Part shown: positions 4,610-42,019 of the stretch, one piece after another | How positions within the stretch are numbered: position 1 is the stretch's first letter | Layout: every line of letters starts with the position of its first letter | Source: Psammoneis japonica | Taxonomy: Eukaryota | Length of the DNA: 64,000 bases | Reading direction: 5' to 3' | Assembly (NCBI GenBank): GCA_008632985.1 | Contig: QPGO01000036.1 | Location: forward strand, 396,182 to 460,181 | Made by a program: the position numbers and the translations under genes | The notes under the pieces: generated by a model | What the model saw: only the letters and a program-made list of their open reading frames with translations | What the model was told of the DNA's origin: nothing | Database searches by the model: none

Positions 4610-7400
4610 TACTGCCAGCAGAGAGATTCAATGAGATGATGGACTCTGCTGCACTTCCGCTCCGCACGCAACTCCTCCTCCTCCTCCACTCTGCCCGCCC
4701 TCCCTGCTCCTCCTCCATCCTCCCTCCTCGCACAAAAATTGTGGCATTGTCCATGTGCCATTTGCGGTTCTTCTTGGCATTCAGGATGCACAGCTCAAAT
4801 GTTTCATTGCCCTTTTGATTGCGGAGAGGGTGGTTCACAAAGGTGCTCCAGCTGAACACTCACCCCTGGTGGGCATTCGAGTCTGGCTTTGCAAGAATTC
4901 TGGCATCAACCAAAGCAATTTTGGGGAATCTACATGAGTTCTGAACCCACCATTCACCCACTTTGAAAAGTTTTGTGAGCTGCAATGCATGCAGTTGAGG
5001 AGCTTGACCTTGTCTCACTTTTAAACTGTGCACGTCAACACCCTGAGCTTTGAGAACTGCCAGCCAATTCTCTTTGATCTGCCAGAACTGGCTGACTTCT
5101 TCCTTGGCAAGTTTCTTGGGGCTGTCCTGTGCATCATTGTCTGCGGAATCAGCTGGCTCCAACTCAGCCATGAGAGAAGTGAGAAACACCAGCTCATCAT
5201 CATCATTGTCATCCTCTCACACAACAGGAGGATCACCAGCACTGTTGGATGAAGATTCAGGTGCAGGGTTGGGGTCGGAGTTGTCTTCATCGCCGCAGAT
5301 GCTGTTGGGGGGAGGGTGCATGGCTTTCACCTTGTTTTGCAACAGCTCCCCAGCCCGGCCCATCAAGGTGCATGCCTTGTCTGAGTCAATCATTTCCATG
5401 CACTTCAATCCACATGCATGTCGCCACAACAGGGTGACACGCGACAGCCAGCAACTGATCGTCCGTTGGCTCGGCAAGGTGTGGATCCATTTCTGAGAGA
5501 ATCCTCTGGTGCAGTTTCCGTCCAAAAGCAGAGAGAGGGTGGCACACCTTGGGAAGATCACTGCAGGAGGTGTTGGCGCTTGGCCAGAACTTGTCACCTC
5601 CCACTGAGGTCAACAATCTTCAGCTTGGATGCATCGGCAATGCGAGCCCATGCAGTCATGCAGTCCATGAGCGACACTGCAATGGCGGCACGTTTGTCAG
5701 CTTGAACTGACATGGAGCAATCATGAAGAGGGTGCAACAAAGCAGCTTTCTCTGCAGTGCAGAGCCAGTCCTCCTCCTTCTCAAGAACCTTGCTGTTTGC
5801 AGCAGATCTGTCACCCATCAACAAAGTGTGACATTTGATCCCGTGATGCAACACAAGCAGCTGCTGACAGAGCAGTGACACACCTGCCACTCAAGTGTCG
5901 CCAGGCAAAGACACAGCTGTGGGATCCTTGCAGCCGCTGCAGCCATGCTCAACTGTGACATTCACAAACTTGCAGTGGCGCGCTTTGTTCCTCTTGCCAA
6001 CATCCAATCAACTGGCTTCTTGGCTGAATTTAGAATCCGCATCGACTCATCAAATGAATCAACCACTGCACGGTTCTGTGTCCGCTTGGCAATGCCAGCA
6101 GAGTGCTTGATGACAAGTTCAATGACATGCATCTGCAACAAATGGGACAGCAGCAAACAAGTTAGAGTTGGAACACTGTTGAAACAATTAACAGTGCACT
6201 GGAAGTGTGGGTTAGCCAGCGCCGGCTTAGCTGGCAAAGGAGTGATGGCACTTTAAATGTGGATCTGGTTTTTTGATGGGCTGCATGCCTGGCATGTGCC
6301 TTCAATGTCTTCATCATCTGAGGCAGCAACAATGAGACTGCCAAGAGAAACGGCAGAGTTTGTTGTGTCATTGACCAAACAGCACAAGTCGTCCTCTGCA
6401 ATTCCCAAACAACTGCCTGGCTCCCTTTTGACAATGTCAGACAGAGACGCTGCTTTATGAGCAGAGACATCCTTGAGCAGAACGCAGACACGATGATGGG
6501 CAAAATTCTTGGGGTCAACAAAGGCAATGGAAAGTCCAAGCTTGGCTTCACCATCCTTTTCCCAACAGTCATGCATGACCAAGATAAATGATTTGGGTGC
6601 CCCCGTGGCGTGAATGCAGTGAGTGCGGATTTGGTCAAGCATGGCATGAGTTGCCTCCACAGCAGCTGCAAAATGACAAAGCATGACATTGTTGCACCGC
6701 ACTTGGCCAATTTGATGATCCTTGGTGTCTTTTAAATCCTTGGCATGATCAATGGCATGTGTCATGAGGTTGCAAAACTGCTTGCTTTGTGCTGCCCATG
6801 CAGAGATGTTGTTGTCATGAACACAACAACATGGTTCTCGCACTCATGAATGACCCGTGCCTTCTTTGGGTGATGACCCACGAAGCCTTGCATTGATGGC
6901 TGTCAAGGCTGACCTTTGCGTTTTGTCATCAGAGCAGAAGCAGCAGAAGACAATCCTGTGAACCCGCTCAGTGGAGAAGCTGCTGCCAACGTTGACCCAG
7001 ATCCAGATGACACATCTGCCATTGTCAACATGGATGACAAAAGCTTCTGTGTCTTTTTCTGTTTTCTTTCTTCAAGCAGGATGCTGATTTCAGGATGCTG
7101 CTTGTGATTGTTTGTCAAGTGCACCCATGTGCATTTGCAGTGGCCAGGTTTTTGAGACCAACAAGTGCCTGTGCCAAAGGGATGCGTGGGTTCTCAAAGC
7201 ACGATGGTGCACAAATGCATGTGTTCTTGCTTGTGTCTTGCATCCTGGAATGACCCCGTGTCTTCTTTTGCCCTTCCTGGTCCTCATCAATGAGCTTGCA
7301 ATGGCGAAAGCATTTCCACACATCAGATGTTGACTTCTTTCCCTGTGGGGGACCAAGATCCATCACCAACAACTTTTCCTGATTCACGCGTTGCAGATGA
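4610..7400 (-). mobile_element. hAT-superfamily DNA transposon, degenerate transposase
   Basis: Motifs in order on the minus strand: BED-finger-like STSDVWKCF...CICAPSC...HLTNNHKQH (~7350-7090); first catalytic region ILVMHDCW; VNDTTNSA (cf. VTDNASN); QMHVIELVIKHSAG (CxxH region); TRVAG; and a dimerisation-domain-like WWVQN..RFPKIALVDARILAKPDSNAHQ...VFS (~4960-4800). Several frameshifts and stops. Confidence 0.8.
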
Positions 7401-7707
7401 GCATCATCCTGTGCGCGAAACTGCTCTGACAGTTGTTGCATTTGTGCTTGGCACTCCCTGCTTTGCTCATCTTGCTGTTGCTGAGTGGAGGAGGGTTCTG
7501 GGTTGTCTGCACCATTTGGATCCCCATGATTCGAACGGGTTGTCATTGGTGCTGACATCACAAGCGTTGTCACATCGGCTTTGTCATCGTTGCGGTGGCA
7601 TCAATGGACATCGGCAATTGATTGGCATGGTCCGCAGGCACCAGCGCCGGTTCTGCATGAGACACAATGCACAGGCTCAGATGCAAGCTCTAAGAACTTG
7701 CACTTGT

Positions 7708-7865
7708 GAGTCAAAGCAGTCATGGGAGTCATTGCACAAGTCAACCAATGAGTCATTTCACAGGGCAACTCAAGTCACAGTCAAAGTCATTTCAAAGAAA
7801 CGGGTGTTGACCATGGTCACAGTTGCAGTCATCATCTTGTCAGACAGTCATCAGTCAAGTCACAG
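7708..7865. repeat. Cluster of AGTCA/GTCA motifs, likely hAT subterminal repeats
   Basis: More than ten (A)GTCA copies in ~160 bp just upstream of the minus-strand transposase. hAT ends typically carry short repeated transposase-binding motifs. Confidence 0.45.
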
Positions 7866-7899
7866 TGCAGTGGGTGCAATTCTGAACAGACTGACACAC

Positions 7900-10800
7900 C
7901 CCACCACTGAATCACAATTCTGTGCACACTCTCATTGAACCTGCCCACATGTTTTCAATGCCAGGTCCTCCGCAGAACAGCCAACCACCATGGTGTCTTC
8001 TTCCACCACTGATGGCAGCCACACCCCTGCTCTTCCCAATGATTCCACCATGGCAGATGAAGCTGCTGTGTGGACAACTCATCCCTTGAGCCTGCCAACA
8101 AGCTGACCAAGTGTCAGGTTGAAGAGATTGCCATCCGATTCAAAATTTGTGGCCCTGAGGCATCGTGTGAGCCCACAACCCTGATCACCACTCATCTGCA
8201 AGTCTCACAACAGATTCTCTTCACTTGCCACAAGGATGTCAAAATCCCAGACAACCACAACAACGAGATCACAAATGTCAATGTGGCAGATTGGGTTTCG
8301 TCTTTGCAGCATGAACGTCACTTTGGGATGTCCACCACACGCAGTGGCGACAAACACCCCGTTGCTCATCACTCATGCCATTGCATCCTCACCAAAGTTC
8401 CTCTTCGCGACATCCGATCTCATCATCACATCCAAAGCATTTTGGATTTGAACAACATGGGCATGAAACGCCATTTCTGGAATGAATCTGACACTGATGC
8501 TGCCAACTGCATTGCCACGGCAATGAAACATGCTCCAATTGACGAGGCTGCCAAAATGTTTCTCAGTGATCTCTTGGAGAGTTTAGGACCAAGATGTCTC
8601 AGTTTTGGCTGGTGCCCACCTCTGTCCATGCAGACAACAACGGCATTGCCACTCCCTTGTGCACAACAACCTTTGCAATTGAAGTGAAACAGGATGAGTG
8701 CCATGCTGCAAGAAAAGTCTTGTCACATGCTTCAAATGAGCTTCCGACCCACATTGTCATGGCAAAAACGTGACACCTGTCACCGTTGGCATTTTACAAT
8801 GCAATCAAGACCCAAGCTTGTCACAATGACAACACATGCGTGATTCCTCTGTTGTGCACGTCACCCGACATGATGTTTTATTTTGGCGACAATCCAAAGG
8901 CTTTAAAAGGAGTCCAAGCCATTTTTCCCACCACTTTGGTTAAAGGACGGCACAATGTCTTGGTCAATTGTGCTGACTTCAAATCCGCGAGAGCTGCAAT
9001 CTCCACGTGCATTTTGAATTTGATCCCGAGCCTCCTCAAAGAATCCTGTCCTTCCCCTCCCTTTCTGGATCATCCCCAGGTTTCTGGTGCATTTGACGAG
9101 CAATCAGACATGAGCAAATCTGTTGTGTTGGCCAGCATTCGGAGTCTTGAATCTTTAACTTCTTGGACGTCTCCCCCCCCTGACAGATGCTCAAGCTTCC
9201 AATGCAAACTGCCCTCTGCCTGCTGCTCATCCTGGCAGAGGTCATGCAGGACAAGGTCCTGTTCCCGGTTGCGGTGCTTCCCAGAGTTCTCCAGTTCCTC
9301 CACAGATTTTCACCCAACTCACTTCTTGCACGCCTTCAACCTTTGGTTGTTCTGGACATCCAGGTCTTAATTCTCCCCAATGTTCCTGTGCTCAAGCTGC
9401 TCAGTCTGCCACCAGTTCCTCCCTCACGTTGACACAAATGGCTGAAGTGCAACAAACTTTGTCCAAGATGCAAGAGAAAACTGACAAGGCTCCGGGAGAT
9501 CTTCGTCAACAGAACTCCCAGGACATGGAAGCTTTGAACTCTACATTCGCCAAACAACACACCAATGACATCACTGCATTGCAGTCACAGCATTCTCAGC
9601 AACTGGCAGGAATGCAGGCGCAGATGAATCAGATTGTTCAACTGTTGCAAGCCAATCAGAGACTGCTCAAAGCTCCACCAGAAAACAACCAAATGACATG
9701 GAAATGCCAGATTGGTCCAGCAATGGTCACAACAAGGAGAAGGATTTTTAGAATGGGGTTGGACTTTGCCGCCTCCACCNNCCCCCCCCCCCCCACAGAC
9801 AATCAGGCACCCTCCAGACATCCCCCCAAGAGATGCGACTCTCACTCTTGCCCACATTTTCTGTTGCACATCTCGACACCGCTGATTCGCTCCCCTCTCA
9901 GCATCCAATGGCACACATTGCTCCAAGCCCCAGTCTTCTCCTTGGAGGAGCATGGCCCAACCATGAGCAGCAAAGTTTACAGTGCATCTTCTGTCCAAGT
10001 TTGGCAGTCCATTCTAGACGGCAGAAGCAATCACCTCCCTGCCAATCGCCGCATTGATTTTTCCCGCCTGCATTCAAACAAGTCAATTTGGCATGACATC
10101 AAGCCAAAGCTTTCCCATCACACCAGATTGCACACCTTCAATGCCAACAGTTGCAAATTTGATAAAAGGGGTGGAGACATGTTGAGCTGCTGCCAGATTG
10201 CCAATGAGATTCAGGCTGATGTCATCGGCATCTCTCAGAAGTTTGTCTGGATGCTGTGCAGTGCGACGTTCTCTCACCTTCTTGATCGGCTGTTCAAAAT
10301 GTGATGAGCCATGGTTGCAGCACATTTTCCTGCAGCTCTGCTGCTTTTGCCACTCGAAGCAAACTTGGAGGCACTGCCACCATTTTGGAAATTCCATCTC
10401 CGCTGGATGTTGCAGTGTCAAGAATCTGATCCGTTGGGTTGCTGGTCCATCCAAGTGTTCAATGGCCAAAACGGATTGCAGGTCATGTTCATGTCGTGCT
10501 GTTGGGTTTGTTTGAAGAATCAAAAGGCACCTGGTTGCACTGCTGCACATGCACAACAAGCACCACTGCTGCGCCAACAAGGTTGTCAAAACACTGATCC
10601 CCAGAAAGCCTTTTGCTCGGATCCATCTTGGCTCCAGGAATTTCTCACAGACAGCAATCACGAGGTCATTTTATTCGGAGACTTCAACACGGACTTCACG
10701 GCTGACACTGAGTCCCTTGCTTTGCTTGCACAGCGATTTAATGTGTCCAATGTTCTGTTCAACTTGATGGGTGACACGGAATTTTCTACCTGCGCTCAAG

Positions 10801-12520
10801 GTTCTGAGCAACTCAATTGTGTTCTCGCTGCCCCAGGTGCTTTGGCTGCTGCTCACTTCGGTGGATCACGTCAGATCATCACACTTGCAACGTTGATTTT
10901 GACACATTGGCTCTGTTTGGAAACCCTGCTGTTGACCTGCTGAAGGCTTGTCATTGTGACATTCTGTCTTCCTCCAAACCTCAGGTGACAACGCATCTCA
11001 AAACTGTCGGACCCATGCTGACCAGCCACAATGTTCTGTCTTGCTCACAGGCTCTTCTTGATCTTGACAAACTGGACCATGAGTTGGCCAAGCAATTGGA
11101 CAGAGACCTCTTGCAATTCTCTTTGGCTGCAGCAAAGAAATGCCAAGCACACCGTGAGCCAGAATGGTCTGTTGAGCTTGCTCAGCTTCAACACAGAGTG
11201 TGCATTTTGAGCCGCGTCATGTCCATGATGTGCACTCACATTGATCGCATCCACCATGTCAGAAACATTTGGAATCAAATTGAGGGCTCCTTCATTGTTC
11301 CTGAGACTGTGGCTGAATGTCAGGCAGCTTTTTGCAAGGCCCAGTGGGGCTGCCAAAAGGTGGCAGCAGATGGCATTGCATGCAGAGAATGTGAGACGAC
11401 AGAGAAGATTGCATCCTTGGAATTGGAAGGCACCAAGGCATCCAGAAGGAAAGCAACCATCCTGCGCATCATTGGAAAAGCAGAAGAAATCAAACGTTTG
11501 TCCCGCAAGATCAAGCGCTGCAAGGCAGACACCAGTTTGGGAACAAATGGTGTCCAGGTGCCCTGTGACCCCTCAGTGAGCCCAAAAGAGTGTGATGAAT
11601 GGGTCACCATTGATGCTCCAGTGGACGTCTCTGCTGCTCTCCGCCTGCGCAATCAAAAACACTTTGGACAGGCCCACGGCACTCCTCCTGCTGTCCCTCC
11701 CTTGTCAGTGGATTTGGGTTGTGTTGGTGATGCAATCTCTCTGCTGATCTGATTCTTGACGGTGAATGTGACGCTGATCAACTCAAAGAAGCCACCTCGC
11801 TGTTTGTGCTCCATCTCAAATTTCACTTCTGCCTCCATCAAGTCAGGACTTCACCTGGGCCATTGGAAAGCCATGTGCGCTCTGCACTCCCACTCTCAGG
11901 CTGCTGCCCCGGACGGCGACCCCACCGAGGAAGACTGTCAGCATCTGGATGAGGTGCAACATGCCCTCACTCAAATGAGGCTGAACCCACTGAACTGCGC
12001 TCCATGCTGGGGACATTTCTGTGACCAATGAAAAGACATCGTCAATGTCATGATCTTTAAAGAGGCTGGGAACAACAAGATGAACCACTGAGAGTCATTC
12101 ACATCCATGAGGCTGACTTCCAGCTCATCTCCAGTGTCATGTGTGGTGCTCCCTTGCTCAGAACATGGAGCAATGCAAGCTTTGCAATCCTGGGATGTGT
12201 GGTGGTTGTCCTTTTTTGAACGCTGACACCCCCGTGTGCCTTGAGGAGTTGATGCTTGCTTTTGGTCGGGTCTCCAGAAAGACAGCCATTCACAGCGACG
12301 ACGATTGCACCTCCTGTTGCGATCAGAACATTCCAGCTCCAGCTGCTCTTGAGAGTTGCAGCGGCAGCATGCCAAGAGAAGTGACTCAAACAGCGAACCA
12401 CACCTTGGAGCAAGCATGGCACTGGTTGAAAACTGCCATTGGCTCATCCGACACGCCCCATTCCCATTCAACCGACTCTCCAATTTGTGGCACAGGGCAA
12501 GGCAGTGGGGTCTCTGGGAC
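7900..12520 (+). mobile_element. Non-LTR retrotransposon (APE endonuclease + RT, resembling diatom Ambal-type LINEs), degenerate and truncated within RT
   Basis: ORF1-like region ends in a coiled coil (9429-9690). APE motifs: FNANS...QADVIGISQ, SDPLGCWS, VILFGDFN, FSTCAQGSEQLNCVL, SDHH. RT motifs: SGLHLGHWKAM (cf. SGRHLGHYKAL), IVNVMIFKEAGN, RVIHIHEADF, DDDCTSCCDQ (cf. DNDAxACYDR), PICGTGQGSG (cf. PIYGTGQGS). Similarity stops at ~12515. Confidence 0.85.
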
Positions 12521-14271
12521 CAGCACAACAATGCCATCTATGGCCATGACTCTGAGACCAGCAAATCAGCACAGAGGAGGGACACGAAGGCTGAGGTCAA
12601 GGCTGTGCATTCTCGATCTGACGATTGCTTTTGGCCAAAGATCAGCAGAACTGCTCGACTCGGTTGAAGAACATCTGATGCACTCCACTCACAGGCTCGC
12701 AGTTGGTTGGCCATTGTTGGACCGACATTCAAATCCAGCATCCGTGAGGCAAAACGTTTGGCAGTGCGAGGAACACGCGCTGTCGCCAGTTGCTTTGGCG
12801 CGGCATCACCTGATGGTGATGCCATTTCAGGCTGATCGCCACATGCCCCTGCCGCGCGCAAGGTGTGCTGGGGGTGTGGGTTGGCTTGTTGCCGGAGTTG
12901 CGGGGCGGAAGCGTGATGGCACCTTAAATGTGGATGTTTTGTTTTGGTCCCACCACTGCCACTGAATCGATTATTTTTGCCACACACATGATGTCGTCGG
13001 CATCTTTGAAATTTTCTCGCACTTTCCAAGCACTTCCTGATGTTTTGTCGGCACTTTCTTCTTGAATCGAAATAATTAGCCATACAATGAGTCGAAGTGA
13101 AAGCGTTGGAACAACACGTACCGTACGGTAGTACATATATACAGGAATATACGTTTGATTTGAATCTGGCGATGACACTTCGCCCCATCGCTGTCTCAAA
13201 ACCAAGCCACTGTAGAACCGATCGTTATCTCCAAGTTGTGTCTCCACATGGCATGTTGACTGGATGAGGCTTAAAAAAAGGAAATGTCTAATGACGCGGA
13301 AAGTAATGGCTTGACAGCATCGACAACAACGTGGCCGCTCCTGCTCAGGCCACATTTCTTATCTTGGTGACGCCACCAACAACGCGGCCGTTCCTTTTGG
13401 CACCAATATTTTCAACGTTACTGCGCCAACAGGATCCGATGGCAGGCCTCCTCTACATCCTAATCGCCGAAATGAGGAGGATCAAGAGATGGGTTTTTCC
13501 TGATTCAAGACCTGTTCAAGTGATTGCTTCTTCTTGTGGCTTCTGGTCGTCAAGTTGGATCAAATAGAATGGCTGGGTTTAAAAAAAAAATATCCCATGT
13601 AGCAGCCAAACGAGTGCTATGAACTTGCTACCAGTTACCGGTACTCCAAATTTTAGACAACATGAACGTTTCCGTTTCATCAAGGATGATGGTCGCGGCA
13701 TCGTCGTGAAACCCCAAGCTATATAAATCGATGGCAAAAAATACAATGGCTTCGATTGTGCAGTACAGCGAGAATTTCAAATGTCAATCGACGCCTTAGA
13801 CAATGGGCCGTGTCATCTAGCAGCCGACAGCATCAAGGGTCTTCAACGAGCAAGGAAAATAGCGTAGACAATGTGAAACAGTCAGTGGCGGAGACTCTCG
13901 AGACCATTGATAACTCGAAGGACTCTGTTTTCAGGGTGCAAATAGATCTACAGACAGCGACGGTGGAAATAATTTGAGCCTGGGATAGGAATGTAGCTGA
14001 AGGACCCGAGCTGGCAATGAAACGGAACTCTAGCACAGGCCACGATCGACGCATAATGGCCGCCTTGATCGAAACCCCCCTAAGTCTAATGAAAGTCTCG
14101 CCAGCGAAATGATAGAAGTATATCAACCAAGAATCTGGCGAACGAATTTATGTCTCGGAAGTATTGTTGCCCCAGTAAATGAAAGGGTGTTACCAAAAAC
14201 TCTACCATGCAAACCACGAGCTAAGGAAGTAAGTCGGCGACCAACCAGAATTGAGTTCGAGTATCCATGTA

Positions 14272-16317
14272 TCATTTTTTATTCATGTCTTTTCGAAGGG
14301 CTCGTGCCACTTTGACGGCTCCATGACGGGCACCCAACAAGTTGAGGGCATCGGGTCCTAGGGCATGGGCGGCAAGGGATCCCAGAACAAAGCACCGTTG
14401 TCGCAAAGCTTGTTGCCACGCACGAGTATCATTGTCCTTGTCATTTTCCTTTGCTGTACCCCACGACAAGTCGTGGTCGTTCAATACCGGCAAGCCTCCC
14501 GCTACGGCAATGGGCAACTCTTGTCGGAGTGCCATCAACGCTGGATACTTGTCAAGGATGTTTTGGGCTCCGGTCGCCAGTATAATCCGATGAAAGCTAC
14601 CACTCAAAGGCGGTTCATCGTCATGCGCGGCACAAACACTACTGCCACCCTCATATGGATGATTGGTTTGAAACGAGACATGGAATTGACCATCCGTCGG
14701 ACACCAGTCCACCTGTTCGATACTGCTTTCTTCCAAAATCGAAATGGATGACTTGTCTTGCAAGGCCTGGACCATTTCGGGCGGGACACTTCCACCCTTT
14801 CGAGCTTGTTTGAGAAATGCCAGTCGTTGGTTGGACGACTCTTGCTTCCAAAATTTATCGAGACATTTGCCACGTTGCGGGCCCATCCACGCATTGTCCA
14901 AATCGAACTGGCGTTGGAGTAATTTGGACCGTTGCAGCAAGGTGACTTTTGTACTCTTATTGCATTGGGATGATGATGCCAATAACATGGCAACGTGGGC
15001 ACTCGTCAGACCGCCACCGACGACTAGAATGTTTTCCGACAACGACGTGTTGGTTTCCGTGGTATTAGTACTACACTCTTCCTCGTGTTGTTGCTGCTGC
15101 TGTCGTTGCAGTAGCCATGGCACAATTTCGTGTGCATGGAGAATCGCATCCGAAGGATAGGGTCGGGTGGAAATCATCGTACTGCCACTCTGCTGCTGAC
15201 AGGTATCTAAACGCAGACGTTCTCTCAAATCTTCTTCCCAATCGGGAATGCAGTCGGATTGAAACTGTGGACCCATGGCACAAACGACCCGGCGCGTCTT
15301 GACGCATATGGTTGAGGTCGGTGGTGTGCCGGTGGTGGTTGACGCCGATGATGATTCTTGTTGTTTTTCTTCTTCAGTCGTCGCCAATAGTTGCAGTTCA
15401 AAGTACGGCTCACCCTCCTCCTCTCCACCCTGAGAGGGCGGCGGAGGACAGGGGCGGATGGATTGTACCTGCACCTGACTGTGTACCATATCTTGAATGC
15501 CATAGGCCTTGGTGAGCAACTCATGGTATTCCAAAAACAATTCATTGGTGGGCACTTGGTAGGGTCCCTTGAAGGATTTATTTCGTTGCGTCAAGTGAGG
15601 CATTGTCACCAATCCGTAGTCATCCTGAATGGTATCGGAGTAGAGTTCGAGCGATCGGTGATCGTAGGGATCGCAGTGTGCATAGATGTGTGATCGCAAG
15701 TGAGGAATTTGGAAGGCTTGAAAGCCATTCTTCCAGTTTTGCAACCATCCGGTACTGGAACTGTTACTACCACTATCCTCCTGCTGTTGCTGCTGATCCA
15801 GCACCAAGACGGATGTGCGGAGCCGCACCAAGTCAACCGCCGGCGCTTCTTTGGAGGAATCATGATGAAATCCTTTATTCTTGCGATGAAGCAAGACACT
15901 AGTAGGGCCCTTGGAAAGGCGCTTCAGATGTTGTCGGACTTGTACGAGAGGTCTCATTTTGGACGTGTAGGCAGATATGGCGTGTCGCTGCTTGTCGGTC
16001 AAGAGGTCTGCGTCGGGCTCAAGCAAGCGCAAGACGAGACTCAATGCGTGCGGACCGGCGCCGATAATTACCAACTCTTTCATGTCCTCTTCTTCCATGC
16101 CATTGTGATTTGCGGTATTGTCATGCCCTGGTGCTTCCGTGGAAGTAGATGCATCTTTCTTTACAGCACTGCTTCTTTCTGTAGCACTAGTGAAAATCGT
16201 ACAACACTCGCAAATGGGAGCAGTCTGGTCTCGACAAGGACGAGACGAACGATCAGAGTCGTTGCTGCGCCGCCGCCTCCTGGACGAAGCATGGGACGGC
16301 GGTGGAAACTGCGTCAT
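14272..16317 (-). CDS. FAD/NAD(P)-dependent oxidoreductase (lysine/ornithine N-monooxygenase-like fold)
   Basis: Intact ~681-aa ORF with normal Tyr content. Two Rossmann motifs (VIIGAGPHAL, ILVVGGGLTSAH), IILATG, and C-terminal LGPDALNLLGAR. First ATG at 16317; the ORF track starts at a TTG at 16329. Confidence 0.8.
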   Translation of the reverse strand: MTQFPPPSHASSRRRRRSNDSDRSSRPCRDQTAPICECCTIFTSATERSSAVKKDASTSTEAPGHDNTANHNGMEEEDMKELVIIGAGPHALSLVLRLLEPDADLLTDKQRHAISAYTSKMRPLVQVRQHLKRLSKGPTSVLLHRKNKGFHHDSSKEAPAVDLVRLRTSVLVLDQQQQQEDSGSNSSSTGWLQNWKNGFQAFQIPHLRSHIYAHCDPYDHRSLELYSDTIQDDYGLVTMPHLTQRNKSFKGPYQVPTNELFLEYHELLTKAYGIQDMVHSQVQVQSIRPCPPPPSQGGEEEGEPYFELQLLATTEEEKQQESSSASTTTGTPPTSTICVKTRRVVCAMGPQFQSDCIPDWEEDLRERLRLDTCQQQSGSTMISTRPYPSDAILHAHEIVPWLLQRQQQQQHEEECSTNTTETNTSLSENILVVGGGLTSAHVAMLLASSSQCNKSTKVTLLQRSKLLQRQFDLDNAWMGPQRGKCLDKFWKQESSNQRLAFLKQARKGGSVPPEMVQALQDKSSISILEESSIEQVDWCPTDGQFHVSFQTNHPYEGGSSVCAAHDDEPPLSGSFHRIILATGAQNILDKYPALMALRQELPIAVAGGLPVLNDHDLSWGTAKENDKDNDTRAWQQALRQRCFVLGSLAAHALGPDALNLLGARHGAVKVARALRKDMNKK

Positions 16318-17424
16318 GGTTGTTGACAAACTGCTTGCTTTTTCTCATCAAAAAAGAAAAATTGTGTGATGAGAGCAGATTCAGAGCGAGCAGCGAGGGC
16401 ATAAAAGGCCTTGGAAGGCCATTGAAAAGGCTCCACTCAGGCTCTTCGGAGCGGCTCTTTAGAAGTCTGGGAGCATTCATCATCATTTGTTCATTGACAA
16501 GCATGATGACGACGACCAATGGAGAGATGGACGAAGATGTGCTCACAGAGCCGATGAGCAATGAGCGCACACATCACACGATGATCATTGTTGCCCTTGT
16601 GAGCAACAACAGTCACATGATGACACAGCCCTTTTTGTGAGAGTGTCTGGCTCTGTTTTCTTTGTTGTGCTGCTGGTTTTCCTCTCCTCCATGACAGAGG
16701 GGGGATCAGCACAGGTTTTGCATGGCTCCGTTGGGAGCTCCTGCAACTGATGAGGCACCAAACTGAGTGCATTTTGACCAACCTTCAGTCACCCGTTGCT
16801 TGGATGCCCCCCCCCCCGTGTGGCTCCCGCTGCGGTGTTTCCTGCAACCCCCCCCCCCCCTGAGGAGCTGAAGCATCAGTGCAGAACTCCTGAGTTTGAC
16901 TTTGCTTGCCATCCACAAAACAATGCAGATCACTTCCAGCTCTTCAATTCCTGCCTTCTGTCTGTGCTGAATTTCATGGGACTCTGCTCCTTTTCACCCA
17001 CAATGGATGCTCCAGCTTGACTCAACAGCAACAACAATTTCCGCTTGCATCTTCTCCCAAAAACTTTGTTTTCTATCACCTCTTTCTTCCCACAATTTTT
17101 TGTTGTTGCAACAGCTGCAAATGCATGACAAACAAATTTGGAGTCACCACAGACCCTCCCTTTGGTGGACCCAGCCAGCAGCATTTCTGTTCACTCCTTT
17201 GCTCCTTTGCCTGGCTTTGTTGTGTGCTCTAAAAACTTTTGGTTTCTGACACCTAAGTCTTCTCCAGAGTTTCTCCAAAACCCTGCTTTGAACATTGAAT
17301 GTTCTCAAATCAGCAACTCACTTGTGGAGCAACTGCTGCTGTGGTGCGTGGATTCACCGCCGGCGGCTCTTCAGGCCCCCAAATCCAAAGCAAATCTGCT
17401 CTGTGCAGAGGCTCTGCAACAGAC

Positions 17425-18400
17425 GAGCCTTGGAACACTCAACTGCTGTTCTCAAAGTGTTCCCTGGGTCCCACCAGGGACCCTTGGCACCCTCAACTTG
17501 CAACTGCTGCACTGGTCAGTGGCATCAGGGTGTTCTTTCATTTTTGAGTTGGCGGGAGCTTTTCAACTCTCACCCTGAGCATGGATGAAATGACTGCTGG
17601 GGGCACAGCTGCACCAGATGAGCCTTGCAACACTCAACTGCCATTTTCAAAGTGTCCCTTGGATTCCCCCAAAAGCTCTCAATGCCCTCAGCATGCAGCT
17701 GTTGTGATGGTCGACTGCACAAGGGTGTCCTTTCACTCTGGAGGAGTTGGGTGCCTCAGCTCTCAATCCTCTGGTGTGGACAAGTGACTGGGGGGCACAA
17801 ACTGCACAAGATGATCCTTTGCAATGCTGGGTGGCCATTCTCAAAGCAGTGTCCCTGGGTTCCATCAGAGACCCTCAATGCCCTCAGCCCGGGGTTGTTG
17901 TTTTGGTTGGAGGCATCAGGGTGTCCTTTCACTCTGGAGTTGGGGGCCTTGACACTCACTCTTCTGGTGGTGACAAAGTGACTGGTGGCCACAAATGTGC
18001 CAGATGACCCTTGCAACACTCCTCAGCTGCAGCTGTTGCAGCATTGCCATGAGGTTTTGCCAGAGACCCTCAATGCCCTGCTTGGCCAGCAGTTGTTGCA
18101 CACACATTGGTTGGCTGCATCAGGGTCTTCTTTGTTCACTCTGGAGCTGGGAGTTCTTCCAGCTCTTGTTGTGGTGTGGTTGAAGTGGCTGGGGGCACAA
18201 CTGCACCAGATGAGCTTTGAAACACTCAACTGCTGTTCTCAAAGTGTCACTTGGTTCATCCTGAGACCCTCAGGAGTGCTCTCAGCCTGCAGCTGTTGTG
18301 TCAGTTTTTGGCGGCATCAGGGTGTCCTTTCACTCCGGAGTGGGGAGTTTCAGCTCTCGTTCTGGTGTGTGGATGAAGTGACTGGGGGCCAAAACCACTC
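17425..18400. repeat. Degenerate tandem repeat, ~195-bp unit, about 5 copies
   Basis: Recurring blocks gagccttg(g/c)aacactcaactg...caaagtgt...gcatcagggtgtcctttcactctggagttg...gtgactgggggcaca, starting near 17425, 17620, 17813, 18006 and 18212. Confidence 0.8.
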
Positions 18401-18619
18401 TCCATCATGAGTCTGTGCCTTGACCAATGAACGCACACTTTGAACACCTGCTCACCTCATGGACTCTCAGAGAACACAGACAGATGGTGTGTTTCTGGTG
18501 CCCTCTGGCACCATGGTTGTTTTGTGCAGAAGTCTGTGCAGCAGAAATGTTTTTTTGCACATGCAGAAACATGCTAGAATCTGCAAGAGCACCACCAGAG
18601 CACATCACTCACACCATGC

Positions 18620-19360
18620 AACTCCTCTGGTGGAGCTCACATCAGGTGATGCGGGTGTCAGTCTCACATTGGATGTGGCCTCTCTCTGCTCAGGGGTGTG
18701 CAAACTCATCTTGCCATGTCAGAAAGCATGTTCATGGAATGACATGTCATGCTCAAAGCATTTTGATGCTGAAGTCATTTTGGCTCTGGCACCCAAGGGC
18801 ATGGGTGCTGTGTTGTGATTGGCAAGGCAGAAGCAACAATGATCAGGAGCCTTGGAGACAGCAATGATGGCTTTTCGCTTCAGCAACTCAATCACCCCAA
18901 AAATCCAAAGAAAGGAAAGGTCCATCGTGGGAAACAATTGGTCCTGAAATTTGGGAGTGTGCAGATGGCAAGGCAGGTGTTTTGGTGGTTTTTTTCAGCA
19001 AAAGAGGAGCTTCTGTTGTGGGGTGCAGTCAGCGCTTGAAGCCACTCAACCCGGCTCTTCAAATTGCAGCTGTGGAGCCATCCAAGTCAGCTGTTCTCAG
19101 TGATGGCAAGCCCAGCCCACACAAGATTCAAGGTGCAGTCATCCAAGTGTTGGGCAAAAGTGTTGCAGCCATGGCCAGGATGCTGGCCACCAACGAGGGA
19201 CTCTTTTGCTGAATTCCCAGCGAAGTGGCGGCAAGCAACAGCAGCCACTGATGTTGCCAAGCATCCTAAAAACAAGGGGAAGAGCGCGATTGTGGTGATT
19301 CCCATTTTTAGAGAATGCCACCTCAGCATGGCTCTGTTTCACAATGTGTGGGATGAAGCT
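18620..19360 (+). pseudogene. cysK: Cysteine synthase (O-acetylserine thiol-lyase, CysK-like) pseudogene
   Basis: Frameshifted pieces match CysK in order: VELTSGDAG (cf. IEPTSGNTG), FDAEVILALAPKGMG, IGKAEA, LQQLNHPKNP, LKPLNPALQIAAVEPSKSAVLSDGKPSPHKIQG, MARMLATNEGL, VAKHPKNKGK...IPIFRECHLSMALF (cf. PSFGERYLSTALF). Confidence 0.85.
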
Positions 19361-20708
19361 GTGTGGCACTCAAGGCAGAGTGGAAGTTTTGGTGATCAAC
19401 TCATTGTGTCTCCCAGTGCTGGTGATCAATTGCCACATGGTGTCTTGCCACAAGCAGTGCACATGTGCACTCCAACTGTGCCATTTCTTGTGCACACCAG
19501 TGGCAGCCCAGATTGAACTGGTCATTGCAAGCTGCCACAAGCAAAAGGATGAGAAACATGAGACCATTCTGGTGTTCACCAGCAATGATCCCCTGGCATG
19601 TCATCTCTTGAGCATCTTCCAACAGCACTGCCTCATTTTCCAGGCCTTGAAGCCATTTGCTGGTGTGCTTGGAGATTGCAACAGTCAAGATCAATGAAAT
19701 TGACAACAGTCCTCATGGCCAGACACAAGACACTTCTTGCAAATGTCAGCGCTTGGGGAACTCTACACATGCAAAGGATGTCCATTTGCAGCTGCTGAAA
19801 GATCTTGCAATGACGTGTCTTGAGGTCTTCCAATCACTCAAGAACAATGAGCTTGACATGGCTGTCATTCTTGCTGTTCAACAAGTTTTGTGTTTTGATT
19901 TGTGCTCATTGTTGTCCTTTCTAATGACTGCACTTTAACAAATCACACAGACTCGAGTCATGAGCCAACTTGTGAAGCACATTCTCAAGTTTGTAGAGGA
20001 CAGCATGGAAGATGCGCTTGGTGGTGGAGCACAAGGCGATCCCAATCATTTGCAGGTAAAATTGAATGACAGTCGGCATCTCTTGCTTCTTCATCAATTC
20101 ATGTCTCGTTTGCATTGTTCCTGGCACAAGCAGTGGTGGGCCAGGCATTGGAATCCCACCCCTCTACAACTCGGGTCAGTTTTGGGAGAGTGGGCCATGC
20201 GTGACACTGCTGCATGCAGAGCAGTTTTGGAAGACTGCTTTGCACTTTTCAAAGTGACACAATGGCAAAAAAACAGAAATAAAAATGCAGTGATGCTGTG
20301 TGCAATCCCGCATGAACTCGAAGATCAACGTTGGAATGTGGGAGCAGCAGTTCTTTCAGCGACTCCTCCACTGCCAGTCTTGTTCTCTCGTAGCCTGCTG
20401 CAAGTGAGTGTGCCAAATCTAAAGTTGTGAGAAAGGCAGAATCAATTCGACACACTTGTGGAGCTTTTCATGGGACGACTTTTCCTTTTTGGATGCACAC
20501 AGATGCTTGAGCCACGTCCACTGCCACTGGCAGTTGCTGACTGCTTTTCAATCATGTCCAGGACTTGAGCCAAGCAATGCCTGTCAGCATTTGCCAGAGC
20601 CACTCCACCATGTCCAGGTCAGACATGAGCCAAGTCAACTGCAAGGGGGGGGGCTCATGCAACTGAGTCCACGCTTTAGCATGAATGAGTCCACTGCCAG
20701 TGACGCGG

Positions 20709-21140
20709 TGCAGCATGCCTTGCCACTGGACAACACGGCGAGACCATGCACAAGCCCCTTGCATGTGGCAACGCAGTGTTGTTGACACGCACCTGGGAAG
20801 CATGACAACAGGAGGGCGTGGCTCCAGGTCTCAGGCAATTCCAGAAGGATGCTAAGAGAGCATCCGTGTGAAGCACACTGGCCCATCGTCTGGCCCACGA
20901 TGGCAGCGTGATTCCACACGATGACATCACTCGTGCACAGTGCATGATGGCTTGATTCGCACGATCCACAATGCGAACGCACGATCGATTTGATGCGATC
21001 CAAATGCGAACGAATGGGGATTTGGCAAGATTCCCCATTCACACGATCCCATTTTCTCTGCTCTAAACTAGCTCATAATTTTCACAACGACAAAGTTGCA
21101 ACACATCTTCTTTTTCAGCGCCTGGCACATGCACAGGGCA
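20709..21140 (+). repeat. 5' LTR (432 bp)
   Basis: Aligns without gaps to 24541-24972 with about 34 mismatches by manual alignment. Confidence 0.95.
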
Positions 21141-21235
21141 CAGTGGTGTTGCTCCCGCATGTTGTGCGAGGTGACGAAATCTACAGAAACAGAAACTGCG
21201 AAATGTTGGCAGGACCGACAAATCTTAAAACGACC

Positions 21236-22278
21236 ATGAAGAAGCAGATTGAGCCGCCGATTCCGTTCGCACGGCCGGAGAAGAAAGAGCTGCAGCAGGG
21301 CGAGCACCAGACGTTCAAGCTGCGTGACAACCCCACTGATCCGGACAGTCCAACGCACGAGATGGGCATTCCGCACCTTTCTACGGCTGCATGCGAGACA
21401 CTCCCAATCTTTCTTCGCAACGTGGATCGCGTGCACGAAGGACAAAACATCACGACCGGGCCAGCGAAATTTGCCCTCATGCGTGACCTGCTGCAGGGCG
21501 ATGCTCTGACGTCATTTAACAATGCCGCCGACAAGCAGGCATCTCAAACCAACGCCACGTACACAGCATGCGTTGCGAAGCTAAAGGAAAGCATCTTCCC
21601 ACATGGGGCGGTGCTGTTGCAGAAGCGTTGTCTGAGGCGCTTCATGCGCAAGCCCGCAGAGGTTTCTGCTCGTGACTACGTCGCGAGGGCTGTTGAAATT
21701 AACGGCTGTGTCTCTCAGTTTCCACCCATGACGGAGGATGGAGAAGCACCGGCACCATTGCCCAATGACAAACTGTGCGATGTGTTCGAGTGCGGTGTGC
21801 CGAACGCATGGCAGAAGTTCATGACGCTGCAGAATTTTGACCCGTTGGCACATGCTGTCGCGAATTCACACAGTTCTGCGAGCGCATCGAGCAGGTCGAG
21901 CTTGCCGAAGGTAACCAGGACCAACATGCCAAGGTTCCATGCAAGCGGGGACGTAGAACGGACAATCCTGAGTCGTTGATCACGACCCAACGGAACACCC
22001 AGAAGTCGTGCATGCTGCACAGGACTGACTGTGGACATCATACAGAGGATTGCCGTCAGCTCAAGCACCACGTGAAATGTGTCAAGACTGGACATTCCAA
22101 TGACGGAGGCAGCAAGCCTGATGCAAAACCTCGGAATGAGGAAGACATCAATGCTCTCATCGGATCGAAGGTCGAGGAGTTCTTTGCCAACACTCAGAAA
22201 AAGCGCAAGGCACGCGAGGAGGAGCTTGATCACTTCCGCGACCTCAACTTGAGTGATTCCGAAGATTCGGACGCCTGA
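21236..22278 (+). pseudogene. gag: Gypsy gag-like ORF, frameshifted, with CCHC-like knuckle
   Basis: MKKQIEPPIPFARPEKK...LLQGDALTSF...QKRCLRRFMRKP..., then CMLHRTDCGHHTEDCRQL in the next frame. It sits between the 5' LTR and pol. Confidence 0.75.
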
Positions 22279-22410
22279 GAAGGGGGAAGACACGACACAG
22301 GCAGTTTTAATGCATCAGATGAATGCACGAATGAACAACTGAATTACCATCATACACGTGTTGTAGGCCAATCCCGCAAACGAGTTAAAAAGACTCATCT
22401 TGCTCCAATC

Positions 22411-24500
22411 TTGTTTGTGGCTGTGAATGCCAAACATGGCAAGGGCAAGACTCAAACCATTGAGGCACTGCTAGATGGTGGCGTCGTCGTGACGAAAGGC
22501 ACCTGTGAAGATCACCTCAACAAACTTGAAGAAGTTTCATTGAGGGTCCAGAAAGCAGGACTAAAAGTTAACGCAACTAAATCTCACTTCTGTCAAACCC
22601 AATTAGAACACTTGGGTTGTCTGGTCAACAGAGACGGAATGCGACCAACACCCAATGAAGTCGACGCCATTAAGCGAATCGCGACCCCAACCAACAAACG
22701 CGACCTGCGCTCATTTGTTGGCATGGTGAACTGCTGCCGCGACACGTGGATCAGACATTCTGAAGTCTTGGCTCCGCTGACACGACTCGTAAGCGAGACT
22801 GTCAAGTGGGAGTGGACGTCCGTTGAAGACGAGGCGTTCGAAACCATTAAACGGGTGACATCGGATGATGTTTTGTTGTCACATCCTGATTTTAACAAAC
22901 CCTTTGAGATGCATGCCGATGCCTCTAAATGTCAATTGGGAGCAGTCACATCCCAAAACAACAAACCTGTCGCCTTTTACAGCAGAAAGCTCAACAGTGC
23001 GCAATTAAATCATGCAACAACGGAGAGAGAATCACTCGCCATTGTGGAGACGTTGAAAGAATTTCGAACGATTCTCCTTGGTCATCGTGTGATTGCACAC
23101 ACTGATCATAAAAATCTCACGTGCAAAGTGTTCAATGCCGAGCGCGTCATGCGCTGGCGGTTGACATGCGAAGAATGTGGTCCCGAATTACGCCATGTCA
23201 AGGGCACCCACAACCCAGTCGCTGACGCTCTTAGTCGCCTTCGACTGACACCCAGCTTGCCTTCCGAGGCCAATCCGGATGTAAAAGACACTCCATCGAG
23301 TCATCCTTTGCATGAAGCTTTTAATGCAGACGTGCAAGATGAGACATCTCTGCCCATTGGCTTCAAGCGCATTCAAAAAGCACAACAAAAGGACAAGCGC
23401 CTGCTCTCACGAGCTGAGGACTCGTCCGACTGCTCCATTCGCGCGCATTGTGGGGGAGGGTCATCACGACAGTTAATCTGTCATAAGGACAAAATCGCAG
23501 CACCACAGTCATTGCAGGTTCTGCTAACTGAATGGTGCCACGAGACACTGTGTCATCCAGGTGAGACACGTGCGGAAATGTCTGTTGCCCAGCACTTCTG
23601 TTGGCCTGGCATGAGGTCTATGGTGCATTCTACGTGCGTCAAGTGCGATCGATGCCAGAAGACAAAACGCCGAATGCAGCATTGTGGGAAGCTGCCAGAA
23701 AAGGTCGCAGAGATAATTCCATGGGAGACTCTGTGCACAGATGTGACAGGGCCATGTAAAATTCAAAGACGCGGAAAGGACACTTTGCAATTGTGGGCAG
23801 TCACAATGATTGACCCAGCAACCGGGTGGTTCGAGATTAAAGAAGTGTCCACAAAATGCGCAGACGTCGCAGCAAACGTCGTGGAACAAACATGGCCATG
23901 CAGACATCCGTGGCCAACCCAGGTGGTTCATGACCGTGGGACAGAATTTATGGCAGAATTTAGCCAGATGATTAAAAATGACTGTGGGGTTTTGAAGAAA
24001 CCCACAAGTGAACGGAATCCACAGGCAAATGCCACAGTGGAACGTGTGCACCAGACACTTGGCAACATGGTGCGTTCCTTTTCAGTGCAGGACATGGAAC
24101 TGGACGAAGATGACCCATGGAGTGGCATCCTCTCCGCAGTGGCCTTCGCCATTGGAGCTGCGGCACATGCGACCACGCGTGCAAGTCCCATGCAATTGGT
24201 CTTCGGACGCGATGCGGTTTCATCCATTGCCCATCGTGCCAAGTGGAAGCACGTGGAAACCAGAAAGCAGAAGCTTGTCCACTTAAACAGCAAGCGTGAA
24301 AATCAGAAACGCAAGGAGTGTCAACACACCGCAGGGCAATTGGCACTTGTCAAACAGGAACAATCCTCTAAGTGCGGTTCTGACAGCTGTGCAGGACCCG
24401 CCAGAGTTGTCCGTGTGTGTGACAATGGCACGTTGCGTGTCCAGAACGGAGCACTGACAGATGCGTGCAATCTACGGCAGATTGCACCCTGTCACCAGCA
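22411..24500 (+). pseudogene. pol: Gypsy pol remnant (protease stub fused to RT thumb, RNase H, integrase)
   Basis: ALLDGG, LKVNATKSHFCQTQLEHLGC, FEMHADASKCQLG, AFYSRKL, HTDHKNL, NPVADALSRL, HxxxxH...CxxC, and integrase core (CTDVTGP, HDRGTEF, PQANATVERVHQTL). Confidence 0.92.
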
Positions 24501-24540
24501 AGACATCCTGTCACTTGACGGCCCTGATCATGGGGGAGTG

Positions 24541-24972
24541 TGCAGTGTGCCTCGCCACTGGACAACACGGCGAGACCGTGCATGAGCCCCTTGTGCGTGG
24601 CAACGTGGCGTTGTCAACACGCACCTGGGAAGCACGACCACAGGAGGGCGTGGCTCCAGGTCTTGGGCAATTCCAGAAGGATGCCAAGAGAGCATCCGTG
24701 TGAAGCACACTGGCCCGTCGTCTGGCCCACGATGGCAGCGTGATTCCACACGATGACATCACTCGTGCACAGCGCGTGATGGCTTGATTCGCACGATCCA
24801 CAATGCGAATGCATGATCGATTTGATGGGATCCAAATGCGAACGAACAGGGATTTGGCAAGATTCCCCATTCACACGATCCCATTTTCTCTACTCTAAAC
24901 TAGCTCACAATTTTCACAACGACAAAGTCGTGACACATCTTCTTTTTCAGCGCCTGGCACATGCATGGGGCA
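24541..24972 (+). repeat. 3' LTR (432 bp)
   Basis: Follows the polypurine tract, matches the 5' LTR, and is followed by the GCGG TSD. Confidence 0.95.
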
Positions 24973-25293: not shown

Positions 25294-26010
25294 TTACAAC
25301 TTCCACCAAAATTGATGAATCTCTCGCATTGAAACAAACTTCCGCTTTCCGCACATGGGATCGTCGTGTTCCTCAACCGCCGTGATCACAAACAAAGCAC
25401 CAGGTCGAAAAAGAATTTCCCACTCACTCTTGAATTTGGATTGTTTCGTCACGTTCACACCCGATCGACTTTCAATCTTGAACAGTGCATTCTTGCTTGT
25501 GCCAAATTTATTGCAAGCAACATGCTTTCTCAGAGAGGCACTCAAAAAAGCCAGGTCCATGAAGGTGGCTCCAGGATGCAACGAATTGAAACGTGCTCCA
25601 CTGATGTTGGCACCCCGGTGGACTGCACCTTGAAACACTGGACAATTCCGCGACTTGCCCATCGCCTTGACAACAGCATCCACACGGGCTTTTATTTCTG
25701 GACTCAACTTTCCAGAGCGCAAGGCAGAATTCATCTGCTTGCAGCCACCACCCGTGCAATCCTTCATTGCCTTTTTGTCAGTCTTGCGGTCGAATGTCAG
25801 CCGTTTCTTGACAGCATTTTTCAAAAGTGCTGGCGCTCGCTTTCGTGTCGACTTGACTGTTTTGCGCTCCACCAAACAAGCCTTCAATTCCTCCACGACA
25901 CCGATCCGTGCGAATGCGAGCTTGATCCAAAAGTGCAGTTCCCGAGTTTTTGAAAGCATCGCCTGCCTGCGAGCTTCTTCTTCTGCACCGCCATTGCACG
26001 TGATGACCTG
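25294..26010 (-). pseudogene. ADP-ribosyltransferase (R-S-E class, VIP2/C3/ART-like), hypermutated
   Basis: KDCTGGGCKQMNSALR (cf. YT...Y..MN..LR), VHRG (cf. VYRG), FLSAS (cf. FLSTS), KSEWEILF (ExE). The frame is open, but the conserved Tyr/Thr changes are single TA->TG/CA substitutions. The 5' end is uncertain. Confidence 0.8.
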
Positions 26011-26880
26011 TTGAGAGATGCAAGGAGACAACGAGTTTGTGAGTTTCTTTTGGGTGGGCGACAGGGAAAAATGAACGAAAAACACAAAGAACAGACAGGT
26101 CGAGATGCCCATCTCCAACGGTCCAAACACAAAGGTTCGGCAAGGCATCCGCTGAGCCACAAAAGTTTTGGTGGAAGTGCAAGCAGCAGCCAGTCCTTTC
26201 TTTCGAACCAGCCCTGACTCAAGGATGCCGGGTCTGTTCTCGATTGACGCACAAGAAGAACGTGGCACTTGTGTGGGTGGGCCGCACCCGATGAGCATCA
26301 TGGGTGAATGCCCCTCGTCCCAATCCAACACTTTTTTTTTGGCAAGCACCAGCGTTCAACCGCTGGCCCGCATCAATGTCGAACGTTCGCACCGCCATTG
26401 TCTTTCCGTGCAATCACAGACGAAAGAGCAACGGCCAGCACTGACTTCCCTTCACAAAGTGCCTGTTGAACGAGAAGTGAGAACAAAAAGTGTCGTGTTG
26501 TTTCCCGTGTTGATTGATGGGGCGAGCCTCCGAAAAGCGCGAGCTTCGCATTGGGGCTGTTTGATTTTTGTGATAGACACATTTGCCCGTTGCGTCCTAG
26601 TAGGATAACTCAGTAGAATGGACATCACGATTCAATTGCGCTCGCCAAGTTTTTCAGCACGAGCTGACGTCACATTCGATTTGAGTTGATTAGTTGGACT
26701 TAAATCATCCGTCTGTCCCAGAGCGTTTTGCGAACAGTGCGATGCGCGCCGCAGATTCCAAGATGCCGCACTCAACTTTGCAACACACCTCAACCTCCTG
26801 CTTGATAGATTTCCGTTTCCGTCACCTCAATCACAATCACTGTATCTTGTGTTTTCTTTCAGTTCATCACCTGATACAAC

Positions 26881-40715: not shown

Positions 40716-42019
40716 GACTGCTCGCCCCCCCTGCGCGCTACTCTATTGATTTAGAGGTAGCTTTTTTGGGAGCGTCTACGGTGATCAACGAGACTCGAAC
40801 CCTCGATCAACGCGGGAAACCTCACCTCTCCCTCCGAGCTCCGCGTGATGGATTTCACAAAGAACGATGATGACGAGTTGCATTTTCATGCGTCGTGTCA
40901 CCGACTTATGACTCGTCAGATGTGAATCAAACCCAAGAGTTGGTTGACAACATGGCCGAAGCTGCCGACACCCAACAAGAACATGATGGCGGCGCGGCTT
41001 CGATTCGCCCCCATCCACCCTTACAAACTGTCAATGCGTCATTTGACGCGATGTCAGCAACAAGGGAGTGGGACAAGGAATTGGAGGAGTTCAACCCCAA
41101 CTCCTTTGAAAGGGATGCCTCACATGCCATGCAACAAAATGTGGCATCAACAAATGTGGTGCAGTCGATGGAGCTGGAGCCACCAATCAGTCTGCACGAC
41201 CGATGGAGCTGGAGCAAGTGTTGCTCTTTTCAAAGATGCATTCTTTTTTGCAGATCCTTTCACTGATGAATTGTTTTCTGTTTCAACAGAAGCCATGAGA
41301 GATGAAATGATTCATTGCAGGTTTCGTCAGTTGCAGGCAAGCCACATCATGGATCTGTCTTGCCTGCCAGCTCCACCCCGGCAAGAACAAGCACAAGATT
41401 CAGCAGAGCACCGCTCGGCAACCGGTTGCCTCCGTTGATGTTGACATCACCAAGAGGTGGTGAGAACAAGAATTTTGCACCAAGGCCATTTTTTAAAACA
41501 GAAGAGGAAACATGTGCCACTGCAGCAGTCCATGCATGTGAAGAAAAGGTGGTGGATGAAACAAAAAATCAAGTGCATTCTCCAATCCGCCTGTGGTCGT
41601 CTGCCGAGTTGAAGAAGCACAATCTTGGCGGGGACTCAAAGCTTGCGCAGCATCGCAAGGCTTGTTGGACAATTAAGAAACTGGAATTGCCGCCAGGTGA
41701 TGTCAATCTCAAGCAGGCAGAAATGTCATCAAAATGTGGTGAGCTTAAAAATGAAGCTCAAATTCAAAACCCGGATTGGGAGAAGCTCGCGTCCGATGAG
41801 TGCAATGACAATCATTGCACAGGAGACTCGGCGAATCAAGATGGCAACTGCTCAGCAAGGCGGCTGGCAGCACAAGTCTAAAATGGCTTTTGTGTTCCAT
41901 GTTCCACATGAGACTTGGGTTGTCCATGTTGAAACAAAACTGACAATCGCGAAGCAAGTTGACCAGCATTGTTTCAAAACACAAAAACACGACAACACAA
42001 AGTGCAATGAAAGTGGCAC

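Follow-up and report, generated by a model that had tools for sequence, protein, structure and literature searches.

Why do a few TpA dinucleotides survive in DNA that has lost nearly all others, and what do the bases around the survivors say about the process that removed the rest? In the window, that is, the whole 64,000-nucleotide stretch of contig QPGO01000036.1 (assembly GCA_008632985.1) of the diatom Psammoneis japonica analyzed here, four domains with 2–4 TA/kb alternate with gene-like segments with 39–50 TA/kb. The erasure of TA in the window appears to be restricted to foreign or repeated DNA and spares genes; repeat status has been shown for two domains and for a Ty3/gypsy element (Table 1). 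The homologues with names that match a neighbouring gene come from diatoms. The pol remnant of this element contains the end of the reverse transcriptase, RNase H and integrase as judged by Pfam, and about 1 kb of its upstream part is missing relative to sister copies, as seen from the gap against the copy L027. The two LTRs show 34 differences per 433 aligned bases, 32 of which are transitions.

Table 1. Positions of features in the window
Feature	Position	Strand	Remarks
Pol remnant of Ty3/gypsy LTR retrotransposon	22279..24585	+	Pfam PF00078, PF17919, PF17917, PF17921, PF00665, in that order
5' LTR, approximate ends	20708..21133	+	direct repeat D1
3' LTR	24539..24965	+	direct repeat; purine tract just before, about 24530-24538
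Presumed gag region	21140..22278	+	placed by position; no Pfam match
Surviving TpA sites (n = 30)	22562..24474		18 TARA/TYTA within TTA/TAA, 9 other TTA/TAA, 3 TCTA, 0 fully permissive
TA-erased ADP-ribosyltransferase (ART)-like repeat copy, multi-copy	25294..26355	-	Pfam PF01129, E = 7.9e-10; independent test family
TA-erased domain 1	1..13072		46 survivors: 35 TTA/TAA, 38 TARA/TYTA, 1 neither
TA-erased domain	16201..19921		9 survivors: 6 TTA/TAA, 8 TARA/TYTA
TA-erased repeat domain	40778..49798		40 survivors: 35 TTA/TAA, 28 TARA/TYTA
TA-erased domain	56234..60144		9 survivors: 8 TTA/TAA, 6 TARA/TYTA

TpA loss in the pol remnant and its sister copies

The original prediction was that about 27 of about 30 TA dinucleotides remaining in pol lie in TTA or TAA and that the few exceptions are TCTA followed by C or T. 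The stretch at 22560–24480 has exactly 30 TA dinucleotides, 27 of them in TTA or TAA, and the other three are all TCTA (TCTAT, TCTAC and TCTAC). The base composition of this stretch predicts a TTA/TAA share of 0.43 (binomial p = 1.2e-7), and so the survivors do not match composition. They also differ from the gene-like segments of the window, where 413 of 1146 TA sites are TTA/TAA (Fisher p = 2e-9). The fairest baseline is the same stretch in L027, the least TA-depleted sister copy, where the proportion is 68/144 (p = 1.1e-5). All 30 survivors are also TA in L027, indicating that none of them is newly made. Domain 1 shows the same bias, as had been proposed, and contains the contexts gttaaa, ttttag and ctttaaat. 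Over 30 copies, the TA count in the 2-kb stretch varies from 15 to 148, and the TTA/TAA share is 0.43–0.65 in the five copies with more than 80 TA and 0.74–0.93 in the rest. The share is 0.34–0.61 in 53 related metagenome loci, none of which is TA-erased (0/53; TA observed/expected 0.57–1.02); the lack of erased loci says little about spread to other organisms because the peptide-pattern search favours unmutated copies. The tetranucleotide TTAA occurs at 1.2/kb in the gene-like DNA of the window and at 5.2/kb in the pol remnant.

A genome search for sister copies gave 44 matches from the 40 of 204 candidates that were scored, and further copies with less mutation came from a second search. Comparison of 29 copies with L027 has shown rates of 0.121 for A>G, 0.123 for T>C, 0.023 for G>A and 0.031 for C>T, with transversions below 0.007. 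The process therefore consists almost purely of A:T to G:C transitions, with transversions at TA of at most 0.6%, and CpG decay forms a separate minor class. TA becomes TG or CA but hardly ever CG, and the rate in the TA context is 0.28–0.64 against at most 0.021 in other contexts. When both members of a pair among 39 copies have lost the same TA, they agree on TG or CA with a median of 0.61, compared with 0.62 expected from site propensities, indicating that the copies were mutated separately, after insertion. One pair, L004 and L028, agrees at 0.93 and was either duplicated after mutation or represents haplotigs; L028 was left out of later fits because it duplicates L004.

Neighbouring losses share a strand in 1945 of 3876 cases, against a null of 1925±30, and no strand-coordinated runs are found in any of 15 distance bins (|z| < 2 in all). 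The ratio of sense to antisense rates is 0.98 (90% range 0.90–1.06, 25 bootstraps), so both strands are mutated, and the residual rate is 1.36 at synonymous and 1.39 at non-synonymous strand-sites (50 and 96, respectively; p = 0.98). TA loss across the sister copies thus shows no sign of selection, sense bias or strand runs. Pairs of changes 2–15 bp apart in lightly mutated blocks are in modest excess (78 versus 58±6), and this might stem from the edges of tracts or from changes that were inherited. A nucleosome-type 10-bp periodicity was not detected in the residual rates (permutation p = 0.72). Copy by copy, changes outside TA do not correlate significantly with TA loss, but a block-level test of the two was significant.

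Flanking bases and the rate of TpA mutation

Per-context rates, which the original prediction had proposed to derive against consensus sequences, were obtained with L027 as the reference. A TA site of L027 entered the fit of strand rates when at least 15 of the 38 copies covered it and two or more still had TA there, which left 264 sites, and exposure was set per copy and 400-bp block; this filter drops the fastest sites and those private to L027, and all rates rest on this one reference copy. The base 3' of the mutated A has the largest effect, with factors of 0.35 for A, 0.52 for G, 1 for C and 1.36 for T. In agreement with this, the trinucleotide rates are 0.64 for both TAC and TAT and 0.36 for TAG, and TAA is the slowest. 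Where the two strands of a site differ, one reading TAY and the other TAR, 2008 mutations fall on the TAY strand and 901 on the TAR strand, and the former is ahead at 102 of 120 sites.

A second effect comes from the wider flanks. The model factor is 0.33 for TARA (TA-R-A on the own strand) and 0.35 for its mirror TYTA (T-Y-TA), so that the two adenines of a site both mutate about 3-fold more slowly when either strand reads TA-R-A (TAAA or TAGA). This TARA/TYTA term was chosen after the data had been seen, and it improves the cross-validated likelihood from 7496 to 7388; the model accounts for 47% of the site-level variance. TAY strands with a TARA partner have a rate of 0.57, compared with 2.36 otherwise, and in lightly mutated tracts the corresponding counts are 7/370 versus 206/1791. 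The own-strand effect of TARA is weak in such tracts (28/678 versus 77/1433).

The TARA/TYTA rule also accounts for the three TCTA exceptions in pol. Relative to L027, the window copy keeps 18 of 28 sites that are TARA/TYTA within TTA/TAA, 9 of 39 other TTA/TAA sites, 3 of 12 TCTA/TAGA sites, which belong to the TARA/TYTA class outside TTA/TAA, and none of the 64 remaining sites. The predicted preference for V-TA-B is therefore a fair shorthand for the duplex, since all 64 V-TA-B sites outside the TARA/TYTA class were lost, but it misses TCTA/TAGA, which is V-TA-B and yet protected. The idea that survivors mark the slow contexts of a real mutator is supported.

The fastest context is ATAT (7.0) and the slowest is TTAA (0.59). 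The number of purine-purine steps predicts the rate (rho = -0.46). A/T richness and duplex stability were considered as the cause of resistance and rejected, since neither the A/T count of the nearest flanks (rho = -0.08, p = 0.19) nor stability predicts the rate; the fact that ATAT is the fastest context also indicates that A/T content is not the cause. The proposal that TA beside A/T tracts is disfavoured is thus not supported.

Adenines after A, C or G are mutated at least 30-fold less than those after T. This minor target keeps the 3' rule, with changes at 215 of 774 VAY sites and 78 of 757 VAR sites, and a 3' effect of the same type sought at G as a control is absent. Changes at these adenines are commoner in heavily mutated tracts (74/6208 versus 6/3386). 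AAY is hit at 100 of 277 sites, CAY at 70 of 241 and GAY at 45 of 256. The order of preference at the 5' side of the mutated A is T >> A, C > G and that at the 3' side is C, T > G > A.

The flank rule predicts which TA sites survive elsewhere, both in further erased blocks and in a repeat that is not a retroelement. In five non-gypsy erased blocks with 108 survivors, the density relative to genes falls from 0.295 through 0.093, 0.015 and 0.008 to 0.004 across quintiles of predicted rate, genes being only a proxy for the original composition of these blocks. The ART-like repeat of the window belongs to an ORF family (L095–L112; PF01129 and PF03496) in which some copies are TA-intact and others TA-erased, indicating that the mutator also strikes a gene-like repeat. 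At 55 sites in seven erased copies, TAY strands are mutated 69 times and TAR strands 30 times (21 of 27 sites, p = 0.006), VAY is above VAR, and TARA/TYTA sites survive in 13 of 54 cases compared with 11 of 159 for the others. A first run in which unmutated copies were pooled gave 111 versus 79 (24 of 35 sites), with a strand-share correlation at p = 0.16. TTA/TAA sites without TARA are not protected in this repeat (4/49 versus 7/110), and so the claim that TTA/TAA is resistant holds in pol but is incomplete as a rule. A family reached through L070, which is about 70% identical, shows no strand preference (37 versus 32); L070:1501-3477 is a TA-intact relative, at that identity, of the erased block at 43700–45700 of the window.

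The gypsy and ART-like blocks (20700–26500) have lost TA with CpG still near the expected level, whereas 1–13072, 16201–19921 and 56234–60144 are depleted in both, which suggests that TA loss precedes CpG decay. A degenerate repeat with a spacing of about 195 bases lies at 17401–18254, inside a TA-erased domain. A duplication of about 245 bases with 82–84% identity is present in gene-like DNA at 39593–39837 and 61027–61270, 21.4 kb apart.

A possible mechanism and its alternatives

It is very probable that A:T changes to G:C in place at TpA, one site at a time and on either strand, and that the survivors are the slow contexts. The whole reading, including the enzyme class and a duplex substrate, is that a distributive adenine deaminase sensing both strands acts on silenced DNA; we prefer it tentatively, with a little less than even confidence. 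Each repeat copy would be mutated after its insertion by a deaminase converting A to inosine, which would be read as G. Over many divisions, the enzyme would strike silenced, CpG-methylated DNA in a distributive manner, and it may sense both strands in duplex DNA or in an RNA:DNA hybrid. A run of stacked purines next to the TA step would hinder its opening or the flipping of the base. The symmetry of the protection suggests that the substrate has both strands, although a single-strand enzyme with independent preferences at -3/-2 and +1/+2 could mimic it. The absence of strand runs is also expected from any low per-division rate, and sequence does not tell whether the chemistry takes place at A or at its partner T. 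We know of no natural adenine deaminase that acts on duplex DNA.

Mosaic gypsy copies contain tracts of 1–1.5 kb nearly free of TA loss within heavily mutated DNA. The mosaic copies are L017, L021, L026, L048, L059, L003, L018, L023, L056, L013, L024, L025 and L035, and the edges of their spared tracts are fairly sharp, at similar but not identical places. The spared tracts have less CpG decay, but transversions and other G>A changes are not reduced, and so these tracts look unmarked rather than younger. The mutator may therefore be tied to methylated chromatin. Within copies, TA loss and CpG decay vary together (10/1993 versus 92/3613).

Judged from sequence, three kinds of gene are candidates for action on DNA. 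These are a TadA-like gene (L082), an ADAT2-like exon (L085), which is presumably ADAT2 as labelled by motif, and two editase-family genes (PF02137; L182:3172-4888 and L181:2935-4475). The L182 gene retains its zinc-ligand motifs, and several genera of named diatoms have homologues of it. In L082, an aspartate is kept at the position of E. coli D108. At L084:313-1785 on the minus strand, a single open frame encodes a deaminase domain joined to a 2OG-Fe(II) oxygenase.

Among the alternatives, a TadA/ADAT2-type deaminase working on transiently single-stranded DNA, the candidate class named by the authors of the Bigelowiella natans study described below, survives best, but it is unlikely. TadA-derived adenine base editors need single-stranded DNA. 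The genome has the TadA-like gene and the probable ADAT2 exon, and these editors convert A to G on DNA with a strong demand for 5' T and a favoured 3' C, all of which is seen here. ABE8e leaves A-to-G changes at TA genome-wide (10.1101/2022.02.09.479813; PMC13225742), and the preference of TadA7.10 for 5' T and 3' C, as in the diatom repeats, is given in the available text of PMC8387386, while that of PMC9033269 gives no 3' preference. TadA7.10 and TadA8e are, however, engineered enzymes that disfavour 5' A (PMC8387386), whereas AA is second here, with AAY mutated at least as often as CAY. The diatom repeats also lack sense bias, strand runs and any gain at low duplex stability, and their protection is symmetric across strands. 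TadA and ADAT2 genes serve general housekeeping, and L082 has the aspartate noted above.

It is less likely still that a base mark or lesion at TpA in silenced DNA, such as an oxidised or modified T or a modified A, miscodes, so that the flank rule would be the specificity of its writer. Like CpG, TpA is palindromic, so that both strands could keep a mark, in agreement with the symmetric protection; the covariation with CpG decay is in line with this. As far as 10.1101/2024.10.28.620566 is available, however, known eukaryotic 6mA of the AMT1 type is at ApT in active genes and not in transposable elements, is absent from Phaeodactylum and has a limited mutagenic effect, whereas the diatom target is TpA in repeats. 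A search of the genome for Tet_JBP gave no match, which weighs little because the control genomes were also blank.

An error-prone Y-family polymerase like Pol eta or iota, misinserting G opposite T in repair patches of methylated repeats, is improbable. Pol eta does cause A-to-G changes at WA (10.1101/783118), and TA is among its hot motifs in somatic hypermutation; effects of both upstream and downstream flanks would suit a polymerase, and CpG deamination could open the patches. In the available text of the same source, TAA and WA repeats are dense targets and A>C (13%) and A>T (12%) accompany A>G (28%), whereas here TAA is the slowest context, AA is at least 30-fold below TA and transversions at TA are nearly absent. 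Same-strand clusters are missing as well, and TA has been lost from the gypsy element while CpG is still at about 0.9 of the expected level.

ADAR-type RNA editing fixed by reverse transcription is very improbable. The 5' order U > A > C > G of human ADAR1 and ADAR2 (PMC11276115, in its available text) agrees with that found here, ADAR flips adenine out of a duplex and two editase-family genes are present. ADAR acts on RNA, however, and its best 3' base is G (PMC11276115), whereas TAG is below TAC and TAT in the diatom repeats. Both strands are mutated equally, the copies are independent and both LTRs diverge. This strand symmetry and the non-retroelement repeat, which obeys the same rule, largely refute ADAR-type editing.

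An artefact, whether from base composition, from selection on coding sequence or from wrong long-read calls at modified TA, can hardly be the cause: flank-dependent errors are typical of basecallers and the element itself is richer in TTA/TAA (0.47) than genes (0.36), but the excess holds against the element's own L027 baseline and outcomes are random between copies. Composition and selection are refuted by this baseline and by the equal synonymous and non-synonymous rates. An assembled public DNA run, which may be the assembly's own sample, contains 0.69 of the sampled words and matches the TA-erased block 24943–25309 in contigs with zero differences; no RNA holder was listed among the public runs searched for these words.

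Comparison with known systems

Human Pol eta, ADAR and TadA, the first and last of which the original prediction had put forward for comparison in kind, thus do not fit fully, TadA and ADAR fitting in part. The signature narrows the mechanism, as had been hoped, but does not pin down an enzyme. It is a reason to set aside RNA editing and a Pol eta of the human type, and its strand resolution makes the enzyme question testable with oligonucleotide pairs that separate duplex from single-strand action. If the deaminase reading is true, a natural DNA adenine deaminase that reads the duplex would add a new branch to genome defence and would interest the field of base editing. The repeat ages and the GC content of the diatom genome are set by a targeted mutator.

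Fungal RIP resembles the diatom process, in the available accounts, in making dinucleotide-specific transitions on both strands after insertion and only in repeats. RIP changes C to T and creates TpA, whereas the diatom process destroys TpA. The diatom targets examined are all multi-copy.

In literature searches confined to papers outside subscription, only one preprint was relevant and none dealt with diatoms; no earlier flank signature was found, and such a process has been reported in print once, the diatom adding an instance of it. The available text of that preprint describes TpA hypermutation measured de novo in B. natans, for which deamination and ADAT2 are proposed (Mettrop et al., bioRxiv 10.64898/2026.01.13.699255). 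Mutation still proceeds only in certain lines of B. natans, with about 1e-7 to 1e-6 changes per site and generation (10.64898/2026.01.13.699255). It is possible, though on balance doubtful, that diatoms and chlorarachniophytes share a natural defence enzyme that deaminates adenine of duplex DNA or an RNA:DNA hybrid in silenced repeats with an R-T-A-Y-type preference, L182 being a candidate. Such an enzyme would be the adenine counterpart of RIP and APOBEC and a natural duplex adenine base editor. Applied to the 231 mutations of B. natans, the flank signature makes a prediction that bears on whether the process in these two distant lineages of algae has a common origin or arose by convergence. 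The two systems are alike in that TpA undergoes T/A to C/G transitions on either strand and only in foreign or transposon-like DNA, with TpA down and CpA plus TpG up. They differ in that B. natans is a chlorarachniophyte studied in de novo lines, whereas the present data come from repeat copies of a diatom. All mutations are placed at TpA, without flank analysis, in the available B. natans text, while both the flank rule and the minor VAY target are resolved in the diatom.
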